Both the position numbers and the translations under genes were made by a program. A DNA stretch of 64,000 nucleotides from Octopus vulgaris. Lineage: Eukaryota. Shown in pieces: positions 2,987 to 57,934 of this stretch (its first letter is position 1; each line of letters opens with the position of its first letter). The stretch covers positions 53,754,001-53,818,000 of the forward strand of contig OX597817.1 in the NCBI GenBank assembly GCA_951406725.2, written 5' to 3'. Below the pieces are notes generated by a model, which was given only the letters and a program-made list of their open reading frames with translations, was not told where the DNA came from and did not search any database.

Positions 2987-3257
2987 AATCCAAACATGAA
3001 AACACAAAGAGAAAACACAACAGCGCGAGGACGTGGAACAAGCATAATGTTATTGGATGCTCAGGAAAGGAAAGAAAGAAGGAGGATTTAACGTTTCGAG
3101 CGGAGTTCTTCGTCAGAAACATAGAGAAGGGAAAGATCCAAGGAAGGGAAGACGGAGGAAAAAATCGCCAACGGTACATTATATATATATATATAATGTG
3201 ACCGCGTGTGTACCGTTGGCGATTTTTTCCTCCGTCTTCCCTTCCTTGGATCTTTCC

Positions 3258-3313
<56 letters not shown>

Positions 3314-4926: not shown

Positions 4927-7900
4927 TTATGTGTGTGTGTGTTTGTGTGTCTGTGTTTGCCCCCTCCAACATCGCTTGACAACCGATGCTGGTGTGTTTA
5001 CGTCCCCGTAACTAAGCATTTCGGCAAAAGAGACCGATAAAATAAGTACTAAGCTTCCAAAGAATAAGTCCTGCAGTCGATTTGCTCGACTAAAGGCGGT
5101 GCTCCAGCATGGCCACAGTCAAATGACTGAAACAAGTAAAAGTAGGTCATTAATGTAAGAACTTGCAAGGTTATATAGCTTTACCACACAACGGTTCTTG
5201 GTGGAATATTTCCAATTAAAGACTCATGGTTCCAACAGCATTGTGGAGCATCGACGTCAGTGACTTTAGATCTCCATTTATTTCTTTTCTTTTTTTCTTA
5301 TATTTGTTTCAGTCAATTGACTGCGGCCATGCTGGACCACCACCTTTAGTCGACCCCAGGAATTATTCTTTGTAAGCCTAGTACTTATTCTATCGGTCTC
5401 TCTTGCCGAACCGCTAGCTGACAGGGACGTAAACACACCAGCAACGGTTGTCAAGCGATGTTGTGGGGAGGGACAAACACAGATACACAAACATATAAAT
5501 ACACACACACACACACAAACATATAGATACACACACAAACACACATCATTGCCATATTGGCATATCCGGCAACATATCCGGCAACATTAATTCCCTCACG
5601 GCCCAATGCGCGCACTTTAGCCCGAACTCTGCACCTCTCATGTTTGGCTTTGAGGTGACGGTGCAAGGCCGTTCTCGCTGCCAAAATGTGAGATGCGGAG
5701 CCCAACCTCAACGCCTCTTCTAGGTCCTTAACTAGTTGCCCTTCTATTCTGGCCTTATCTAGTCTTAGCTGACGGCTAAACCTAATAGACTCAAAACGAA
5801 TGGCTCTCTTCAAGGCAAACCACCATCGGTTATTAACCACCGCGCCGGTTAACGCCCTCTGTACTAATTCCCCAATCCGGCTACGGTATGCCTCGCAAGT
5901 CAAAATAGACTTGTTCAGCTTCCAGTAGCCGTATCCTCTCTTAACTACTATCTATGTCCAGCCTACACTTAACCATTCTATGGTCAGTGTAAGCTACTTG
6001 GACAAGCTGTGGACAGCTAAAACTAGACTTATCTCTATTTCTTATCACTATCCTATCTAAATAGGACTTGAACCCCCCGTCGCCACTCATCCAGGTCCAC
6101 TCTGGGACGATCGGATGGTCAAGTCTGTAACGATCTGCCAGCTGAAACCGCTTGAGCAGATCAACGAGACGTGAGTTTACTTTCCTATAGATCGAGCCAA
6201 CGCTATCGATGCGCATATCAACAATAGCGTTAAAGTCTCCTAACACCACTAATGTCTTCGACGTTACGAGAAAGTTCTCTAGGCGCCGATAAAAAGCAGT
6301 ATGAAATCCTCTAGCACAAGGGGCATAGATCCCGATCAACCTGAAGGCCTTACTGCTGTATGTCACATCAAGGTCGCCCAGCCCACCTTCTGGGTCTACA
6401 TAGACTGTACTTGTCTGCAGAGCCAAGCCTTTTTGAACCAGTACTACTACACCCCCTCGCCCTCCGGTCCGGCTAGGAGACATGATTTTCTCATAGCCAT
6501 TCAGTGGGAGCGAGAAAACTTGTAGACTGTCCAGCTTGGTCTCTGTAGCAACCGTCACATGCATATCGTGTGATCTGAGGTCGTCGAGGAAACAAGCTTG
6601 CCTCCACTTCGAGCACAGACCACGCACCTTCAAACACCCAAGGTTAAGTGCAGTCATTTAAAACAAAAGAAAAGCAAGGGTTCTACTTACTCTTTGACCT
6701 TTTCTTTTATTTGTGATGCTGGGGCTGACCTCACCACACGTGAGGCAGTCCTTTCCTCCTACTCCTTTAAAAACTCCTTCAAATACCGCGGAAGGTCCGA
6801 GATATTCGTGATGGTTCTCGGATGCCGACCCTTCATTTCATTATATAGTTTTTCTGGTATCCAGGCACATCTCTCTTCTGTGCCTTGGGGTTGCTGCAAC
6901 AGCTCCACGGTGTGGTGCTTCTTTAATGTGTCCATAATATATTTATCCCTGGTATCAAATTTTACCAGGATTTTTGTTCCGTCTTTGTTCTTTTTTATTT
7001 TCTCTTCTGGGACAGTGGAGCGGGATCTTTTTTTTCTGTGGTGTGCTGTTTTTCTTCTTTTTTTGTGGGAGATATGGATGGGGAAGGTGCATGTGTTCTC
7101 TTTTTTCTGGGTGTCTTGAACTCACCCTCGGTCACCTCCATGGTGTCTTCCAGAGGAGTTGTTACTTCAGAGGGGGTGGGTGCATTTGTTTCTGTCGGGA
7201 CCGGTGTGTGCATGGCCTGGGGTTTTTGGGTGTTTTGTTTGGGAGCAGGCGCCACAGATGGTGGAGTGGGAGTATTTGTTTCTGTGGGGGCTAATTTGTG
7301 TGCGGGTTTGGGGGCTTTTTCTGTAGTTGAAGGGCCTGATGTCTGCACACTTATTTTATTTTTTTTTCCATATTTCACAATCTACGCGAATGTGGCCTTT
7401 TTTGCCACATTCGAAACACGTGGGTTTTTTGCCCTCTACTTGAATCTTGAGGGCAATATCTTCCCCCAAGGGCACTCTTTCTAGCAGCATTTCGATGTTT
7501 TCTTGTGTTCCCTGAATAATCGCAGAGATGATCTGCCCTTGCCAATTTTATGGGGCAGTGCATGTGATTTGGAGGAAGGTGATTTTGTCCGTCCTGTTAT
7601 ACAACAGGGCGGCCATCACCTCCCTTGCCTCAATTTCTGGTGGTAATTTGTTTAATCTAACGCGTGCTGTTCTTCTTCGTTTTCAGAGGACTAATTGAGT
7701 GCTCTTGGGCTTTTCGGCCGTCTCAAATCTGGACTTTATTGTTCCATATGCCCGGCCCCTCGCTATGTATTTTATATCTTTCCATATAGGGGCCAGGCAT
7801 TTTTCTATTTCGCACTTTTCGAAGTGCTTGAATATTTTCGATGAAGGGCAGTACGTTTTGAAAACGACTGTCCTTCTCTTCATATGTTTAACACTAGGGG

Positions 7901-13328: not shown

Positions 13329-16300
13329 AGCCCGCCCCCCACACACGTAGACATGTATCACTTTTACTCTTTTACTTGTTTCATTCATTTGACTTCGGCC
13401 ATGTTGGAGCACCGCCTTTAGTCGAGCAAATCGACTCCGAAACTTATTCTTTGTATGCCTAGTACTTATTCTGTCGGTTGCTTTTGCTGAACCGCTAAGT
13501 TATGGGAACGTAAGCACACCAGTATCGGTTGTCAAGCAATGGTGGGAGGGCAAGCACAGACACACAAATACATACATATACATATATAGGACACACAGAT
13601 ACACACACACGTATATATACATATATACGACGGGCTTCTTTCAGTTTCAGTCTACCAAATCCACTCATAAGGCTTTGGTCGGCTCGAGGCTATAGTAGAC
13701 GACACTTGCCCAAGGTACTACGCCGTGGGACTGAACCCGGAACCATGTTGTTGGGTGCACAATAAACTGCGGAAATCAGAACGATGACTTGCATATTCAG
13801 TCTTTACACGTTGGGGCTAATTCGAACGTGAATACGACAATCGCTGTTGTAGTTCAGCTGACCTGTGATCAGAAGTATTCTGGTCGTGATCACTCCGTTT
13901 TCACAATTAATATTCGTAGCCACTTTAACATGGCTGTCCATTCGAGCAGACTCTCCTGCGATTTTTTAATCCCAAGAGGACTTCTCCTTTAGCTGGCTAA
14001 CGATACACAGCTGTATCCGATGAAATTGCGAGCAGGGGAGCGAACCCCTACCATCTCCTAGCGACAAGACCAGTAAACCAGTCCTGGTTTCGGGCTATTT
14101 CTGTCACTTCTTAGGACTGGACACCTCGTGGTTTGCTGTAACACTTTCGAATCCATAATAAACGTATTGTAGAACAATCAGGATAGTAAATGGCTATTGT
14201 AACACCTTGTGGTTCGTTTGTATTAAGTAATATTCAGAAAATTCTGCCGTGTCCCAATAGATTTCTTTTCTTACTTAATATCACATTTCTAATGATTCTC
14301 CGACAACAGGAATTTTGTTGTCTCCGACTGAAGGCCGTCCTGTTGAATGGTTTCTACGTAGATTACATTCAAACTCTGTTACGGTACATAAAAACGCATT
14401 ATTATATAAGTCCACCATTGTCCTCGTAATCTTCACAAAGCTGCTACGAGAAAAGAGGTAACAGTTCTAATAATACGCCACGACAATGTACAAAATTGTA
14501 TTCAAACTTTGTATTCATTCACATCTTAAACGTAACAGTACTTACTGAGTTACGTTCTTTGGTTAGTGATTAAATATATGTGCCGAGGCCATGCTGGAGC
14601 ATCTATCTATCGATTTAGTTTACTGTACCGTTAAGGTAAGATCGAGAAACAAGGTACTCAATCTAGTGAGAAACAAATATTTCATGTGCACAGTTCCAGG
14701 ATACGAACTACTAATAGTTTAGTTCTATATTTGAGAGATGACGAATTATGTACATTATTTACATTTGACGGATATTTGTTCCCATCTTTGTTGTTAACAC
14801 GTTTCGGCTGATATACCCTCCATCGAAAAATACCTTAGGAATGAGAACCCAGGTTCGAAATTTCCCCAAGGCACATGATGAAGGCTGGAGTGTACATCAG
14901 CCGGAACGTTGTGTTAACAACAAAGATGAGGACAAATATCCGTCAAATGTAAATAATGTAAATAATGTACTAATATTTTCTTGTGAAAATACGTGTCTAG
15001 ACAGGTTTTTATCCCATCACGCCCTGTGTCTCTTTTTCTGAACAGCTATGTTGCGGGGATGTAAACATACCTACACAGGTTGTCAAGTAGTGGTGGTAGA
15101 CAAACACACACACTCACACAGGATTCTTTCAGTTTCCGTCCAACAAATCCACTCATAAGACTTTTGTCGGTTCGAGTCTATAGTAGAATGCAGTTAAATT
15201 ATTAATCAATATCATCGCCATGTTCTAACTCGACGAGCTAGCAAAATGGGCAAAATGCATACCGACATTTCGTCCGTATTTACGTTGTGAGTTCAAATTC
15301 CACCGAGGTCGACTTTACCTTTCATCCTTTTGGGGTCGATAAAATAAGTACCAGGTGAGCTTTGCGTACCAGTGCATAACTGGTACTTAATTTATCGACC
15401 CCGAAAGGATGAAAGGCAAAGTCGACCTCGGCGGAATTTGAACTCGGAACGTAACGACAGACGAAATCCCTATTTCTTTACTACCAGAAGGGGCTAAACA
15501 CAGAGAGGACAAACAAGGACAGACAAAGGATTAAGTCGATTACATTGACCCCAGTGCGTAACTGGTACTTAATTTATCGACCCCGAAAGGATGAAAGGCA
15601 AAGTCGACCTCGGCAGAATTTGAACTCAGAACGTAACGGCAGACGAAATACGGCTACGCATTTCGCCCGGCGTGCTAACGTTTCTGCCAGCTCGCCGCCT
15701 TATTGCTAAGTCATATATAAGCCATCAAAGCAGCTAAAATTCTTTCTAGAATTTTCGAAGTCATTCACACGAGATAAAATCTGGGTCATGCATGACGTCA
15801 TTGTGTCGTTCGTAATTCAGAACGAGGCTGACTTAATTAAAGATGGCTTCTTAATATCGACACTAGAATTTAATATATGACACAATGGGGCGTCGAGAAG
15901 ATATTGATTTTACACAACTCTGGTCTGATTATAAGGGACGAAATATGGGGAACACCCTGTTCATTAAGTTCTTTCATTAGTTTATTCGGAAATAACAAGT
16001 CTACAAGTCATAGAAAAAAATGTCATTATGTCTAGATTTGTGCAAAGTTGTGTGCGTGTGTGTTAGATGACTCGATTAAGAAGAAATAGCAGCTAAATCT
16101 ACGTCAAATCACAGATTACTCTCTTAATAAGATGTCTAGTTTGATAGTGTAGTCGTCGACACACTGTGTATGGTAAAAAGAAAAATGTTGGTGCTGGAAT
16201 GCTTTGGTGATTGGTATTGTGGAATAGAAAGGCGACGAGCTGGCAGAAACGTTAGCACGCCGGACGAAGTGCGTAGCCGTATTTGGTCTGCCGTTACGTT

Positions 16301-16750: not shown

Positions 16751-19700
16751 GATAATAATTTGAGGGAATGTTATTCCAAACTTGCAGGGAAAAATTCAGT
16801 TTAGAAATACTAAATCAAGTTTCACAAAATATAATATATATATAATTAGAAATTTATATATTATTTTTTATCTTATATTTAATATTTCTATTATATGTAA
16901 TTTTCTAGATGGTGTAATTTAATTTTTCATTTTGAATTGATAAAAGGTGGGTTTTTTCTCTAATTTATATATATATATGTATGTATATATTAGAGGAAAA
17001 AGGCCCAAAACACCAAGACAGGACGAGTATCTCAAATCATTTAGAATATAAAATTAGAGTATGGTGAATCTGAGGTAATTAACCAATTAGTTAATTAATC
17101 AATTAATTAATTATTGGATGTCTTACAGCTGTTTCTGCGATATTCCAAATGATAGGTTAGCATCGTCATACACTGGATATTCCGTCATTAGAGACAGGGT
17201 GAGTATGTATGAAAGTTCTAGGCAGGGAATTCATAGTTTACAAAGCAATAAAATAGTAGATAGAAGAAGAGTAAAGCAGTTGATAGAAGAATAACGAGTA
17301 AAGAATAAAGAGATTAATAGAATAAAGAGTAAAGAATAAAGAGATAGAAGAATAAAGAGTAAAGAGATAGAAGAATAAAGAGTAAAGAGAAAGGAGAATA
17401 AAGAGTAAAGAGAAAGGAGAATAAAGAGTAAAGCAGTCGAAAGAAGAACACAGAGAGGAGAATAAAGTTCACAGCTCATCTTTTTCCAGAGGGTATGGAC
17501 GTTGGTCCGTACTTCCGTGAAGGTACAAGTCCTTAAGTATAATCACAGGTAAATCCAGGTAATATTTTGGAAGAATTTTGACTGTTGGGTTCATGTTGAA
17601 GGAATAAATCAATTGATCTATTCTTTCAACATTTAATCTCCGACATTTGATCTTCAACACTTGATCTATTCTTTCAACATGAATGCAACATTCAAAATAC
17701 TTCCAAAATACTGCTGAAGGGACCCCAGCTATTCTGTTATTTTCCTGACAACCTCTGTTACTCCTAATTGATTAAAGGTATATGTATCAAAGGACCCCAG
17801 CCATTTTTACGGATGGGTTTGTATCAAGAAGGAACCATCGATGTACAACACATCTGGCTGTTTTATCTTCGAGTCGAAAATCTTTGCTTTGACTGACCGG
17901 CCTCTTCTATATTTCATTCTGTGTATGCTTTAAGGGTGACCTTTAAAGATACTTAAAGGGTGATCTCCTCTATAAAATAATTCTTTTAAGACCGCTGAAG
18001 CTTTCTCGCACGACAGCAGAAGCGAAGTATATATAATAATGCGGTCAACGGTGTGTATAACCAAATTTCCTGGAGCCAAAATTGAGAAGTGTATAGGCGT
18101 AGAAAACCTGAGTTTCCTGTCTGCATCTATTTTAATCCTTAAGGTCGGCTGAAGCTTATTGACACAACATGCTTTTTTCCGCTGAGGACGAGTGTAGCCT
18201 ATTGACACACTGCTAAATTGTGAAGAAGACGGGTGTATATAAGCCACATTTGCGTTATAAACTGATTATCATCCATTTCCCCCCATATTTTTTGCGTCTT
18301 ACACGAAAAGACTTGCTATTTATACCCGGCCTTAAAGCGTTAAAGGCATAATAACGATACAAAAGTACAACTAACCATCAGGAACCTACACCATATACCC
18401 TATCCTGTCTTGTATTTTGTCAACACCTTATCCAGGTATATAAACATTAATTCTTTTATATAATAATGCGGAAAGATTACGAAAGAGTTAATTTATTTTC
18501 CCACTGACTCAATTAAAATTCAAAGCTATCAAACGATTTCGGAATAGTTTAATATTTAATGGTGCTACCTGTTAATTTAGTGGCGTGAATGTATAATTAA
18601 TGAATATCGAACAGATATCTCTTTCTTGTGTATAACACATAAATATTTCGTTGCATCTAAACTCGTGTAAAGTTTAGCTCTAATGTCTAATCGTGAGAAT
18701 TTTGTTGGTGAGTTAAATACTATAAGATATTGATGAAAACTGAAAGTAAAACAACAACAAGAGCAATAATTTGCTGAACATGAAATATTTATAGAATCAA
18801 AATGTCGCATATATAGAGTTACTTCAAAAATTTACTTAATTGTCTCAACTTATTGGCACGTGTTGATGTTTATACTCGGTGTCTTTCATGTTAGTGACGC
18901 TCCAGTATTTTCATGCTTACGTTATCCCATATTTTTAGGAATAACATTGTTCTGCTTCCCAAATACTGTCACATTTTGATGCTAACGATGTCCCATATAC
19001 TAATACTTCCTTATATTGGTTTCAAATTTTTGCACAAGGCCAGCAACCGCAGCGAAGTGGGTAAGTCGATTACATCGACCTCAGTACACAACTGGTACTT
19101 ATTCTATCGACCCCCGAGATTATGAGAAGCAAAGTGTTAATTCATTGTAAAAACAAGGCGGCGAGCTTGGCAGAAACGTTAGCACGCCGGGCGAAATTTT
19201 GCTGTTTTTTTTTGTTTTTTTTTGCATCAGCCAATATTCCATTGTTATGAAACGAATTCGAATCCCTCCGTGACAGCTGAAACCGTTTTTTCGCTACAAC
19301 TAAAAAAAACAAAAACAATTGCAGTGTGGAAGGTGTTTATAAGCCATTTAAGAAACACACAAAAACCGTTAGATTCATTTCAACATTTAAATTTAATTTG
19401 TCAAAATATTTTCGTCGCTTTGAGACCGCGACCTGTTCACTGACAAATTTCTGTGCTGCGTCAAAATTTTGATGCAGCACAGAATTTTGTCAGTGAACAG
19501 GTCGCGGTGGTGGTGGTGGTGGTAGCGCTGGTGGACACAAACACACATAATGGGCTTCTTTCAGTTTCCGCCTACCGAATCCACTTACAAGGCTTTGGTC
19601 AAACCGAGGCTATAGTAGAAGACACTTGCCCAAGTTGTCACAGAGTTGTATCGAACCCGGAATCATGTGGATGGCAAGCAAACGTCTTACCGCTCAACCA

Positions 19701-22700
19701 TTCCTGCGTTGCCTTTCATTCTTTCGGGGGTCGATAAATAAAGTACCAGTTTCGCACTGGGGTCGATGTAATCGACTTAATCCCTTTGTCTGTCCTTGCT
19801 TGTCCTCTCTATGTTTAGCCCCTTGTGGGTAGTAAAGAAATATATTTATAATTCTCGTCTCATTTCGGTGGAATTCAATATTTTTGTTATTTCTTTTTTT
19901 CTTCTCTTTTCTTGCATTCTTTCAGTGGAATGATTCGAAGCGAGGTATTACAAGTGGGTTTGTGGTTTCTGGTTTCGCCGCTGGGGCATTCATCCTCAAC
20001 CAAGCTATAACTGCCATTCTGAACCCAAACAACGACTCTCCTACATTAGAGAGTAGCAGTGGAGAAAGGTAAGGCAACTCAGTTTTATTTATTTTTTAAT
20101 GGAGTCATATATTATGATGGAGTCATATAATTATTGCAGCTTTTTTTCAATAAATTTTATTCAACACAAAATTTAAACAAAACGCCAAACAGAAATTGAA
20201 GTAGATGGTGAATATGCTACGGAACAATCATTTGAAGATGTTTTTGTTTGTCTGTGCATGTGTATGAATGTATGTACTTATATATATGTATTATATATAT
20301 GTATTATATATGTGTGTATATCTTATATGTACATATGTGTATGTGAGTGTGTGTGTGTGTGTAAGTTTATATTAACCGATTCCTGTATTTTTTTATTTAG
20401 ATATTTCCAGCAGACCGATATCCTCGACCGTGTACCGGCCATCTTTTGGATGTTGGGCTCCGTTTATGCTTCCATGCAGCTGATCGGGGTTTTGCTGTTA
20501 AAAAGACCGAAACTTAAAAAAAAGGTCAGTTCCTTTATTAGAAGAAACGTACAAGAATTCTTAAATTTCAAATATAACCTCTTCGCCTTTCTACCTCCCC
20601 TCTCTTTCTCTTTCCCTCCTCTACCTCTCCCTCTCTTCTCTCTCACTCCCCTCTCTCCCACCCCTCTCTAAATTCCTATCTCTCCTCTCCCCCCTCTCCC
20701 TTACCCTCTCTCTCCCCCCTCCCTTCCCCCTTCTCCCCTATCTCTCTCCCCCTCTGTCCTCTCTCACCTCTCTCCCTCCTATCCCCTCTTTCCCTTCTCT
20801 CCCTCCTCTCCCTCTCTCCCCTCTCGCTGTCCTTCCTCTCCCTTCCTCCCTCTGGATGCAAATGTGTCTATGACTATGTAGTTAGGAGATGTTTTGGCAC
20901 AGCCGTTTTGGCGCTGCTTACTTGGCACCGCCTATTTGGCGTCACTGATTCATCACTGACTTATTTGACGTCAGACGTTTGAATGTTTCCCTCATTCTTT
21001 CCTTCCCTCTTTCTTTTTATCTTTCTCTGTGTCTATGTGTGTGTGAGCATCTAGTTATGCTTGTGCGTACGAAGAGAGAGAAAGTGTTTATGCTAATCAT
21101 TTTAAATTAATAAATCGTAATCTCTCTCTACGTCATGGCGTTGATCTGGCAGAACCGTTACCACACGCCGGACAAAATACTTCTTTCTCTTTTATTTCTC
21201 ATTTACTTGTTTCGGTCATTTGACTGCGGCCATGCTGGAACACCGCCTTTAGTCGAGCAAATCGACCCCAGGACTTATTCTTTGGAAGCCTAGTACTTAT
21301 TCTATCGATCCTTTTGCTGTACCGCTAAGTTACGAGGACGTAAACACACCAGCATCGGTTGTCAAGCGATGTTGGGAGTACAAACACAGACACACAAACA
21401 TATACACACACATACATATATACATATATACGACCGGCTTCTTTCAGTTTCCTTCAACCACATTCACAGACAAGGCTTTGGTCGGCCCGAGGCTATAGTA
21501 GAATACACTTGCCCAAGGTGCCACGCAGTGGGAATGAACCCAGAACCATGAGGTTTGTAAACAAGCTACTTACCACACAGCCACTCCTGCGCCTACTTAG
21601 CGACATTCCGTCTGTCTTTATGTGTATTGGTTAGGCAAACGTTGAAGAATGTCACAGATAGACGACTGAAATCAATAAACTTTCTTAAATTGATGAAGTA
21701 ATTAAAGACATCAATTTTTGTTTAATAAGAATTAATCAGAAGAGAACGGGTGACATTGATAACCATTTTAAGGGACTCTTGACTGTCGGGAGGAAAGAAG
21801 GAAGATATATTTAGACAGAAAGCCTTTTACGATTATTTGTAATTGAATGGAATCCATTCAAAGTAACCAATGTTTCTCTAGCACCCAATAATAGAAACGG
21901 TTCCTGATAGATTACCGAGCAGGTACTCATTCAAAAGAAGAGGAAACAAATGTTTAAGGTGATGTACTGTGAGACTGGTGGAGGCACATGGCCTAGTGGC
22001 TAGAGCAGCGGACTCGCAGTTGAGGGATCGCGGGTTCGAATCTCAAACCGGACGATGTGTGTGTTTATGAGCGGAATACCTAAGTTCCATGCGGCCCCGG
22101 CAGAAGGTAACGGCGAACTTCTGCTAACTCTTTCGCCACAACTTTCTCTCACTCTTTCCTCCTGCATCTTGCAGCTCACCTGCGACGGACCGGCGTCCCA
22201 TCCGGGTGGGGAACCTATACGCCAAGGAAACCGGGAACCCGGCCCTTATGAGCCAGGCGTGGATCGAGAAGAAACAAACAAAACAAACAAACAGTGAGAC
22301 TAAATCCAGAGTAATGTTGCAAAGCGAACAATTTAACCACACACATTTCTGCAATAGCTATTGTCCCAATTTCAGTAACTAGTTGTCAAAATATCGAATC
22401 GTATCAAAGTCCTGCATCCTCTGCCATTATTTCGGCAGTCGTACAAGTAATACAACAGAATTCACTGTCAATACTACACAATATTGTGATTGTATTTTGT
22501 TAAACAAAACAAAGGACAATAGAAGAGCATTTGCTTAACATGCGTGGGGGGCACGGCTTGCCGAATGGACAGGGTACTGTAATAAGACAACGGAAAAACG
22601 CTAGTTAGGTCTCCCGTTTCTTCTTTTCTCTCTTTCCATGTATGTATGTATGTATGTATGTATGTATGTATGTATGTATGTATGTATGTATGTATGTATG

Positions 22701-23097: not shown

Positions 23098-23516
23098 TAG
23101 GAATGGTATTATTAAAATACCATCACGTGTGGTAAGCGAATTATCAGCCGTACAGACAAATTAATAAAATATATACATACAATTTTAGATAAGTACAAAT
23201 ATACACAAGGGTACTACATGAATACCTATATCGCTAATGATAGAAATCAAAAACTACTTCTGTACCACCGAATAGTCACAAATGTATTACAGACATGATG
23301 GGAAAAAATATCAGTGAACAATAATAATGTCTTACCTCAAATGGGTCAGAACAAGTAAATGCTGGTCAACCTGGTACCAGTTTCGAAATTTAGCGCCAAA
23401 TAGGTGCCTGATTTCTCATCAGCCAAAGTCCGCCAACTAAATTACTACTAACATTCTCCCCCATATATCTATATATATCTATATATATATATATATATAT
23501 ACATATATATATTCCT

Positions 23517-41855: not shown

Positions 41856-42356
41856 ATAACTTATAAAACAAGGGCAAAAGAAAACATTCTAATGCCAAAT
41901 ATGCCGAAAATAGACAAATTGTCAATAACTATTATAATTTATCACTATAAACACGCGTCTCGAAGTAAGCCAACAGAAATTTCTAAAACATTTCGTTATT
42001 ACCGTATCGGTCCCAATTTCAGAGTTAATTCATAAGAACTTTCTCCTCGTCAGCGATAAATACGTAAGACATAAATGAAATACTTACTTATACTTACTCA
42101 TGAAATACCCATAATTGGGTATGAGTAAGTATTTAATTTATGTCTTACGTATTTATCGCTGACGAGGAGAAAGTTCTTAAGAATTAACTCTGAAATTGGG
42201 ACAAATACGGTAATAACGGAACTTTTTAGAAATTTCTGTCGGCTTACTTCGAGACGCGTGTTTATAGTGATAAATTATAATGGTTATTGACAATTTGTCT
42301 ATTTTCGGCATATTTGGCATTAGAAGTTTTTCTTTTGCCCTTGTTTTATAAGTTAT
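41856..42356. repeat. ~500-bp near-perfect palindrome with degenerate hammerhead-like motifs in both arms
   Basis: 41856-42089 pairs with 42122-42356; uaucg CUGACGA GGAG..CUCU GAAA uugggac cgaua. Confidence 0.88.
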
Positions 42357-46598: not shown

Positions 46599-46649
46599 CA
46601 AAGACATAGAATTTAATAAAAATTAGAACATATATATATATATATATAT

Positions 46650-46699
46650 TTTGTCAGTGAACAGGTCGCGGATTTTAGCGACGAAAATATTTTGACAAA
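46650..46699 (+). ncRNA. Hammerhead-like motif with G3:C8 core (second copy)
   Basis: uuuguca GUGAACA g GUCGC ggauuuua GCGAC GAAA AUAU UU ugacaaa. Confidence 0.68.
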
Positions 46700-46859
46700 T
46701 TAAACTTAAATGTTGGAGTGAATCGAACGGCTTTTGTGTGTTTCTTAAATGGCTTATAAACACCTTCCACGCTGCAATTGTTTTCGTTTCAGCACACGAT
46801 CTCAGATCAAATTACTTGCTATGCGAGTACATCTCCGTAATATATATATATATATATAT

Positions 46860-47335
46860 ACACCGGAGTAAGCATATGAATGTGAAACCAGGTGGAATAA
46901 ATGAGTACTCAAACACCAGAGGTAGAGTAATATGCTTTATTGAAAGAAGCAGAAATATCACAAAAGCTGTTACGCAGAGTTTCACGTTTCCGTTCGTCGT
47001 ACAGTTTTGTATTTTGGAAACTGCTCGTCGTTGCCATTGTGTCCGCCATATTTGGTAACTGCCTTCACGGAACAGAAAATATAATCATGTTCTCTCCATT
47101 TGGAAGAGAGAATTATACTGAGCACCTCTTACCTCCTCTTTCTTCTTTGGATAAAACCAGTTCCACCATCCATTCCCATCTGAAACGCACGTCTATCGGG
47201 CCACGAATACAGAATGGCAGACACAATGTCATCAACGAGCACATAGTCTCCAAAACACAGAACTGTCAGACGAACGGGAATGTGAAACTCTGAGTAACAG
47301 TTTTTGTGATGTTTCTGCTGCTTTTAATAAAGTAT
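46860..47335. mobile_element. Inverted-repeat element with hammerhead-like motifs at 46965-47004 (-) and 47261-47302 (+); interior duplicated at ~45075-45290
   Basis: aacugu CAGACGA ACG ggaa UGU GAAA CUCUGAG UA acaguu. Confidence 0.6.
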
Positions 47336-47510
47336 ACATACATAATACACGTACACATTCATAAATGCATACGTACGTACGTACATACATACATACATAC
47401 ATACATACATACATACATACATACATACATACATACATACATACACACATACATACATACACACATATATAATACACACATACACATACATACATACATA
47501 CATACATACA

Positions 47511-54959: not shown

Positions 54960-55131
54960 GTAGGAGTGGCTGCGTGGTAAGTAGCTTGCTTACAAACCAC
55001 ATGGTTCCGGGTTCAGTCCCACTACGTGGCACCTTGAGCAAGTGTCTTCTACTATAGCCTCGAGCTGACCAAAGCCTTGTGAGTGGATTAGGTAGACGGA
55101 AACTGAAAGAAGCCCGTCGTATATATGTATA

Positions 55132-56310: not shown

Positions 56311-57934
56311 CATACATACATACATACGACGGGCTTCTTCCAGTTTCCGTCTACCAAATCCACTTACAAGGCTTTGGTCGGCCCGAGGCTATAGTAGAAG
56401 ACACTTGCCCAAGCTGCCACGCAGTGGAACTGAACCCGAAACCATGTAGTTGTGAAGCAAGCTTCTTACCACACAGCCACTCCTGCGCCTATTTTATTTT
56501 ATTATTATAAGATTTTATGTTGACCTTCAGTACGGTGTCTGGTGTTGGCTGGATTCTTATTCGTTACCTTCAGTCAATTCATATGACCGCAGAAAGAGAC
56601 TACCATTCGCAAAATGGTTGAACTTCAAAGTAGAACCTTGTATATCCACTCCCGTAGATCCGGCTTGTTGTGCTCAAGCTCCTGGTCTCTTTGGTTTGGG
56701 AAACCCGACAGGGTTTTGCAGGTCTCCGACTCCGCCACTCTTCGTGGTTTGTGCTCACACTACATCTTGCTTCTCACTAACCTCATGTGTCCTATACCAC
56801 TGTGTATCACGATTATCGTCCCCGAGTAGCAACTGCTTACCCCCTAGAAAGTAGAAAAAATAGCCAATATTTCCTTCAAACTTATTGCATTTATTCAAAT
56901 CCTAAAGAATCCCTCTCAACATATGACTATCATGTTCCCCCACTACTCCTGCTCATCATCAGAGATGCACATATTTTTAACCACTAAAGGACATATGCAT
57001 GTGGTTACGGTCGAGTGGTTAAGTAAATCTGTAATATTAAGTAGAATATTTGCTCAAACGATATTTCTGCTTCAGCAGCGCAGCGCTAAATATCTCTGAA
57101 ATGTAATGGAAAATAGGTCAGTTTCAAAACATTGATGTCCAGGTCACAAAACCAAAGTTTGAAGGGAATTATATAGCCATTGCTCTTGATTTCTAGATAG
57201 AAACAAATAGGAAATAACACTTGCTGACCGAAGACAAAAAAAAAAGTAAAAATTAAAATTGTGTTATACAGTGTAATTAATGTTACGTGTCCCTTTATTA
57301 TTATCATTATTATTATAGAAGCAAAGCTCAGGTTCGGTCTTATTCCTGGCAGCATTTATGTAGGTAGCAGGTTACTACCTGTAACCTTAGGTTTACCACA
57401 AGTTTTCAGCAGTCTTTCGAGTGCTTAGAACCCTCCTGATAATCTTTGCTGTCCATAAGAGGCAAATTTTCTGCAGGAGCTCTATTAGGCATTCTATTCC
57501 AATCTCCTTCAGCCATTTGTTTATATCTTGGCTTACTGTTCCCAACGTACCAATTCGCATGCTCTAAATTCTTTCTATTTCAAATCTTAAAGGATTATAT
57601 TTTCTTTCTTTTTCTCCCTCTTATTTTACGATCCTGGAATCAAACGGACATCATGGGTCATTTATTATTATTATTATTATTGTTGTTGTTGTTATTATTA
57701 TTAAAGCAGCGAACTGGCAGAATTCTTAGCGTATCGGACAAAATGCTTATCGGCATATTTTTCGGTTCTTTGTGTCCTGAGTTCAAATATCGCTGAGGTC
57801 AACTTTGCCTTTCATCCTTTCGATGGTGATGAAATAAGTACCAGTTGAACACTGGGGTCGATGTAATCGACTAGGCCCCTTACCAAAATTTCGGACCTTG
57901 TGCCTATAGTATAAAAGATTTTTATTGCTGTTGT

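Follow-up and report, generated by a model that had tools for sequence, protein, structure and literature searches.

A 64,000-nt stretch of the Octopus vulgaris genome (contig OX597817.1, positions 53,754,001 to 53,818,000; referred to below as the window) contains two hammerhead-like motifs that read GUGAACA where the hammerhead consensus has CUGANGA, and the question is whether this double change at core positions 3 and 8, from a C:G to a G:C pair, belongs to a ribozyme whose fold is selected. A sequence-only reading had placed the motifs at 19395-19449 on the minus strand (copy 1) and at 46650-46699 on the plus strand (copy 2), and inspection of the sequence confirmed both, each with the GUGAACA core, stem II (GUCGC/GCGAC) and the GAAA-AUAU-UU segment. 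Stem I is indeed 9 bp long in copy 1 and 7 bp in copy 2, and loop II differs (9 nt versus 8 nt). The 7-bp stem I is typical of a young subfamily, to which copy 2 belongs, and 9 bp is peculiar to copy 1, a member of an older subfamily. In copy 2, sequence and folding place stem I at 46650-46656/46693-46699 and stem II at 46665-46669/46678-46682, with G3 at 46657, C8 at 46662, A9 at 46663, an inserted G at 46664, G12 to A15.1 at 46683-46686, U16.1 at 46691 and U17 at 46692, and the predicted cut lies between 46692 and 46693. In copy 1, G3, C8 and U17 are at 19440, 19435 and 19404, and the cut is predicted between 19404 and 19403.

Both ends of the motif lie in stem I, and stems I and II flank the core in the type I arrangement. 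The core residues U4, G5, A6, A9, G12, A13 and A14 and the pairs A15.1:U16.1 and G10.1:C11.1 are all present, the NUH site is UUU, and both copies carry the extra G between A9 and G10.1. The stretch from A15.1 to U16.1, AAUAUU, is palindromic, as needed for a stem III formed by a dimer. The literal consensus of C3 plus G8 (CUGANGA) is absent, and the expectation that standard searches would miss the motif was borne out: Rfam models searched at E ≤ 10 against the 210-nt element (46636-46845) gave three matches, no hammerhead among them, and a search of the whole window at E ≤ 1 gave no hammerhead among the 150 of 225 matches listed, among which microRNA models hitting microsatellites and hairpins predominated. 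A descriptor with G3:C8 matched twice in the window and never in 300 dinucleotide shuffles of it. The folding z-score was -3.4 for each motif, but since the antisense strands scored similarly (-2.5 and -3.4), it is no guide to the strand; the opposite-strand reading was dropped because no hammerhead core is found there.

Over 141 nt, well past the motif ends, the two copies agree at 91.5% of positions and thus derive from one repeat. Since this repeat comes from one retroelement, the G3/C8 state common to both is inheritance and alone no sign of selection. Both motifs form the 5' part of a terminal repeat (pLTR) of about 205 nt, and the motif is almost certainly the pLTR hammerhead of a Penelope-like element (PLE). 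Copy 2 sits in a solo pLTR of the young subfamily (46650-46838, plus strand), which is clipped at stem I at its 5' end and lies in an (AT)n tract. This pLTR contains the first 30 codons of the element's open reading frame (46749-46838, with a MAYKHLP start, 92 nt downstream of G3) and an optional tail of about 55 nt (46782-46838), located between the preferred 3' ends at +132 to +135 and +187 to +189. Copy 1 sits in a solo pLTR of the older subfamily (19307-19462, minus strand) that ends near the tail start, and its best other copies are 93-99% identical. Beside it lies an inverted, truncated partner at about 19474-19508 on the plus strand, which holds only the 5' half of the motif, i.e. the leader, the 5' strand of stem I, GUGAACAG and the 5' strand of stem II. 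With copy 1 this partner forms an 84-nt palindrome (19425-19508), and in a read-through RNA it would pair with the 5' half of copy 1 and make it inaccessible. Elsewhere in the window, 42153-42213 (plus) and 41999-42059 (minus) form an inverted pair of hammerhead-like motifs with a canonical core (CUGACGA), probably a repeat of another PLE family, and further hammerhead-like candidates lie at 23422 and 63638, both on the minus strand. Two interspersed repeats are abundant in the window as well (15288-15601, 19550-19800, 54962-55115, 56314-56487 and many others); one of them has a long hairpin, and we take both to resemble octopus SINEs. Long inverted repeats occur at 3115-3272 and 46931-47336.

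The assignment to a PLE is based on the genomic copies. The 181 nt from 46650 recur at 100% identity at no fewer than 40 places (all of the 40 scored out of 759 candidates), several of which are accompanied by an inverted partner whose end falls at +127 to +135. Eight of 30 repeat loci extend further upstream, one reaching the end of a GIY-YIG frame; conversely, each of the 30 endonuclease-end loci analysed (30 of 40 listed, from 507 candidates) is followed by a pLTR of like orientation, at least about 0.8 kb beyond the query. The element frame contains DKSG, GGAIG and YVDD motifs and a CQSNCAVC linker ahead of the GIY-YIG domain, which was matched by Pfam (E = 1.6e-5), while no reverse transcriptase (RT) family exceeded the cut-off. 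Locus L092 has an open frame of 1,025 codons with the YVDD and GGAIG motifs, in the order RT and then C-terminal GIY-YIG, and L175 shows the complete arrangement, with pLTRs at 1235-1423 and 5496-5682 flanking the reading frame. This frame begins inside the pLTR, 92 nt after G3, and continues into the RT-endonuclease (RT-EN) frame in L175 and L176, two near-full-length copies that are both interrupted by stops. A candidate splice acceptor at +145 was rejected, as the stretch is coding. The anatomy of the element, with pLTRs, an inverted 5'-truncated partner, an optional tail and (TA)n targets, and the linker criterion of PMC8557442 would make it a C-terminal EN+ PLE of the Neptune/Nematis type. 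The PLE that carries the G3:C8 motif is recently active. Loci L113 and L114 contain pLTR pieces in tandem, up to seven or more in an array, spaced by about 170-190 nt with (TA)n between them, a setting where hammerhead dimers could form.

The ends of the copies indicate which RNA is reverse transcribed. To select 30 copies (of 40 listed, from 879 candidates) we used only sequence that lies past the predicted cut; they represent 25 sites, five being inverted pairs. Of these, 28 begin between -19 and +3, two further upstream and none at the predicted cut (+44). Since most begin about 15 nt before stem I and none at the cut, uncut RNA is the usual template. In most genomic copies the motif is complete and the copy starts a short way upstream. 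Among 87 distinct leader-bearing copies, which are not all independent, 24 run on into the upstream element and 33 stop at an AG at -15/-14; 22 of these 33 carry a preceding G at a position that is T or C in the element, compared to 13.5% G in the flanks. Copying of the cap, or untemplated addition at the template end, would leave such an extra G, and we infer that the RNA starts at -15, about 15 nt before stem I. The upstream element at this common 5' end (L175:1205-1222) also resembles a branch point with a splice acceptor. Of 148 3' ends, roughly classed, 61 cluster near +133 and 69 near +188. In the life cycle that we propose, transcription would start about 15 nt before stem I, the uncut RNA would serve as template, and reverse transcription would start at the two tail sites, so that the 5' repeat would yield solo copies of about 150 or 205 nt and the 3' repeat longer, 5'-truncated copies.

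A template that is usually uncut would also be expected if the fold were kept purely as structure, for protein binding or folding or as a translation or promoter-proximal element, with cleavage irrelevant. We regard this as rather unlikely, but it has several observations on its side: in the green anole, catalytic mutants of a PLE left in vitro insertion unchanged, as described in PMC11167929, Naiad PLEs spread without canonical hammerheads according to PMC8557442, and a sister family in the octopus genome with a C at position 9 is highly active (3,803 matches; frames of 1,310-1,312 codons).

This sister family is the nearest relative of the G3:C8 family, with 57% protein identity and open frames of 1,310-1,312 codons (L271-L275). 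Its motif, ACCA CUGAUGC G GUCAC/GUGAC GAAA GAAC UU UGG, is present in both pLTRs of all five full-length copies (in L271 at 1150-1195 and 5745-5790), carries a C at position 9, where A is conserved (CUGAUGC-G), and lies about 140 nt ahead of the start codon; downstream, the pLTRs align with those of the G3:C8 family. At the equivalent site it has C3:G8, together with U17, and among the first 100 of its 3,803 matches a hand count found 91 that read CUGAUGC and none with G3:C8. A metagenome relative (L276) has C9 too, combined with U3:A8, and C9 in these two is a sign that the clade tolerates core damage.

More distant relatives were sought in 42 metagenome loci, of which 24 extend to the end of the reading frame, with a scan that required GAAA and gave no score bonus to the 3:8 pair. 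It found eight hammerheads on the sense strand, each 98-182 nt past the end of the frame match, six with C3:G8, two with U3:A8 and none unpaired at 3:8, against three matches in three control orientations (antisense and reversed), none of which was paired at 3:8. In the octopus element the corresponding gap between stop codon and hammerhead is about 1 kb and rich in microsatellites. Sixteen of the 24 loci that span the frame end gave no motif; five of these 16 have less than 110 nt downstream and four are near-identical versions of a single element. By eye, L279 contains a CUGAAGA-G hammerhead about 110-165 nt after the end of the frame match (4710), with 15.1:16.1 swapped to U:A around the palindrome UAGCUA, which the scan missed because it demanded GAAA. 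Four near-identical contigs (L285-L288) have, again by eye, a hammerhead-like motif with A for G12 about 150-185 nt after the frame match. In viral contigs, none of 120 loci (of about 600 stretches) had a G3:C8 motif with both stems of at least 4 bp.

Across all 10 families, N17 is U or A, and the base inserted between 9 and 10.1 is G in nine, including eight of the nine relatives of the G3:C8 family. In a tree of 20 rows, none of them a named Neptune or Nematis reference and with 24 of the 42 metagenome loci left out as short or redundant, the G3:C8 family groups with its sister at 100/99. Because the sister has C3:G8 and the neighbours have C3:G8 or U3:A8, G3:C8 is by parsimony a derived compensatory swap. 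In an 11-row alignment, seven chosen pairs were paired in 93.5% of cases, compared to 66% in shuffles and 30-43% in a slid register, figures that are not probabilities since the rows are related and were chosen by a stem scan. At 3:8 all 11 rows form a Watson-Crick pair (CG in seven, GC in two, UA in two), where the rows stand for about six independent lineages, the two GC rows are the G3:C8 family itself, and L281 is out of register. The hammerhead reading and the 3:8 pair hold. The earlier claim that the double change argues for selection survives in altered form: as an argument from two copies it fails on common descent, and with three pair types at 3:8 the cross-family comparison supports selection. 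The comparison also speaks against a fold kept purely as structure, as G12, the U-turn and the NUH site are all kept across proteins that are 33-57% identical, and a mere binding site would not obviously require them. In addition, the 3:8 pair is described in PMC3884650 as a trait of the active core conformation.

Conservation of G3 and C8 among the copies of the family, a check proposed with the original reading, was likewise found. The genome contains 6,609 exact matches to the half-core with G3:C8, and 65 of 65 pLTRs in 60 loci that were picked by protein, and not by motif, read GUGAACAG. The genome counts used fixed flanks and took in G3:C8, C3, and non-C3 with non-C8, leaving out A3 or U3 with C8; matches include inverted arms and both repeats and are not insertion counts. 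C3 occurs in 22 matches, all of them with C8 and none with G8, so that a canonical-core subfamily inside the family was rejected. Another 430 matches have neither C3 nor C8, and the first 100 of these comprise, by hand count, 45 G·U, 31 G·G, 17 G·A, 4 U·G, 2 A:U and 1 A·A. Variants with G8 (35 in the first 100 of the 430 rows, four of them with U3; also L191) far exceed those with C3 (22 in all), despite the same kind of transversion being required for both. A single ancestral G3·G8 subfamily was considered and rejected, as the eight G3·G8 copies examined have no clear common haplotype.

Two loop II sequences distinguish the older and the younger subfamily. In contigs of four runs that are possibly RNA, variants of at least 3% occurred in loop II (five places) and downstream and none in the core, and the single stem II variant at this threshold retains a G·U pair. 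In four other runs, with a 2% threshold, there was no variant at positions 3-9, and changes occurred also at G12 and at that end of stem II which contains a CpG (up to about 5% in three large runs, with 14% at 11.1 in a small run) and as A to G at position 1.3 of stem I (2-7%, retaining G·U), the inserted G and position 1.2 varying in the small run only. This within-family constancy is mostly inheritance and decay and is no proof of selection. In L331 and L333, two copies of the family, both strands of stem II have changed in a compensating manner (GUCUC/GAGAC), which could reflect selection or hairpin-templated repair. L318, L323, L330, L336, L341 and L342 belong to another repeat with a mostly canonical core and a GUCU(A/G) stem II, L318 combining G3 with G8. 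A pattern designed to reveal additional families matched 25 times, versus 5 in the control, and the matches resolved to mutant copies of the G3:C8 family, a canonical-core family and noise.

The counts within the family leave room for an inactive hammerhead that drifts within a successful master element, in which chance complementary changes at 3 and 8 hitch-hiked. One origin accounts for all 6,609 matches, the route from C:G to G:C passes through an inactive single mutant, and G3·G8 copies (31 in the first 100 of 430, by hand count) outnumber the 22 C3·C8 copies. We consider this scenario quite improbable nevertheless, since the G3:C8 family and its sister differ in stems I and III, in loop II and in one stem II pair, with paired changes compensating, whereas U4, G5 and A6 and G12, A13, A14, A15.1 and U16.1 are unchanged between the two families, and the eight G3·G8 copies, having no clear common haplotype, look like later decay. 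Replication as a non-autonomous retrozyme or SINE, by way of circular monomers released through self-cleavage, is very improbable indeed: most copies are short (about 150-205 nt) with fixed ends, and L113 and L114 contain tandem arrays of pLTR pieces, but the same sequence is the pLTR of an autonomous element and carries its start codon, the copy ends are away from the cut site (0 of 30 start there), and the copies are dispersed, with no tandem monomers bounded by the cleavage site.

We read the motif as a minimal type I PLE-pLTR hammerhead with a swapped 3:8 pair that probably cleaves itself slowly, and only as a dimer or with protein. That it cleaves, and that cleavage is what is selected, seems fairly likely. 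The leader is predicted to fold stems I and II, with pairing probabilities of 1.00 for G10.1-C11.1 and 0.90-0.94 for 2.1-1.1. The modelled monomer is without stem III (probability of A15.1-U16.1, 0.000), and G3 is predicted to pair with U17 over the cut site (about 0.65). When two monomers were folded together with RNAcofold, the lowest-energy structure lacked the dimer stem III, a result that is uninformative for the tertiary fold. The absent monomer stem III, the G3·U17 wobble and the copy ends argue against strong cleavage activity. A G between positions 9 and 10.1 is harmful in one viroid hammerhead, and this inserted G is nonetheless the norm in the clade of the octopus motif.

In the mechanism that we propose, the palindrome AAUAUU would form stem III between two copies, or protein would help, and the G3·U17 wobble would have to open. 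Cleavage after U17 would then be slow and partial and occur in a minority of transcripts, where it would remove a 58-nt leader or split tandem units or read-through RNA. It might act as RNA processing, or as a switch between RNA used as template and RNA that is translated or degraded. U17 instead of C17 would have admitted G3 without a G3-C17 trap. According to PMC3884650, which gives this as data not shown, G17 is more favourable than C17 to the function of G3-C8; having no C17, the clade would have been in a position to accept G3. The G3·U17 wobble of the octopus motif is the analogue of the inactive C3-G17 trap described in the same paper. As a lead only, RNA viruses offer examples of cap-independent translation driven by the cleavage of a ribozyme (PMC13725137). 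That the octopus motif might be the first natural active G3:C8 hammerhead, fixed in a flourishing retrotransposon of a marine PLE clade with C:G, U:A and G:C at 3:8, and that its fold would be selected even though the RNA being copied is capped and uncut, so as to cut the capped leader off a minority of transcripts and thereby lead to cap-independent translation or decay, is a tentative and doubtful proposal.

The G3:C8 family and its C3:G8/C9 sister are matched natural constructs in the same genome, and the clade-wide covariation of an active-site pair argues for selection on the fold. Standard descriptors and Rfam miss G3:C8, so PLEs reported without hammerheads may hide such cores.

The system to which the motif belongs is a known one. 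The pLTRs of PLEs carry minimal hammerheads with an insertion between 9 and 10.1, a palindromic loop 3 and a low, multimer-dependent activity, as described in PMC4209133, and the octopus motif agrees with these in its type I arrangement, its presence in both pLTRs, the extra base at 9/10.1, G10.1-C11.1, the palindromic stem III/loop 3, the mostly truncated and dispersed copies and the inverted pairs. It differs in the 3:8 pair, for among the 56 motifs in Fig. S3 of that paper G3 occurs in none, U3:A8 in two and U3·G8 in one. It also differs in its inserted base, which is G, whereas the published consensus has H and G occurs in 1 of the 56, and in its stem I of 7 bp versus 4-5 bp in the schistosome motifs of that paper. 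Natural hammerheads with U3:A8 have been reported (PMC3088659; schistosome Cercyon PLEs in PMC4209133), and natural covariation of the 3:8 tertiary pair is common to these and to the octopus motif; yet U3:A8 keeps a pyrimidine at 3 and a purine at 8 and is reached by two transitions, while G3:C8 needs two transversions and, unlike U3:A8, places a C at the general-acid position 8. The literature searched contained no natural G3:C8 hammerhead, and since the PLE hammerhead-dimer alignment of Lunse et al. may contain such rows, we describe the motif as a new core variant of the known PLE hammerhead system whose novelty is not certain.

With the Neptune/Nematis-type PLEs of PMC8557442 the octopus element shares RT, the CX2-5CxxC linker, GIY-YIG, pLTRs, tail and (TA)n targets, and inverted 5'-truncated partners are common to both. 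The closest functional comparison is PAc, a Poseidon element of the green anole (PMC11167929), which likewise has its hammerhead at the start of the pLTR and reading frame, AT-rich targets and an uncut template, and whose internal priming sites and tail are matched by the two octopus 3' ends that bound the tail at the start of the reading frame. The elements differ in the start codon (92 nt after G3 in octopus, in stem II in PAc), in the tail (about 55 nt versus 30-40), and in the linker, which is CxxxCxxC in the octopus protein and absent from Poseidon. According to the same paper, cleavage of the anole RNA requires protein, uncut RNA is the main template, and cleavage is dispensable in this one in vitro PLE system; C3G and G8C each abolish cleavage and the double mutant partly restores it. 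The engineered C3G/G8C double mutant of PAc has the 3:8 state that is wild type in octopus, where the textbook mutant used to rescue the hammerhead 3:8 tertiary pair is found as a natural sequence.
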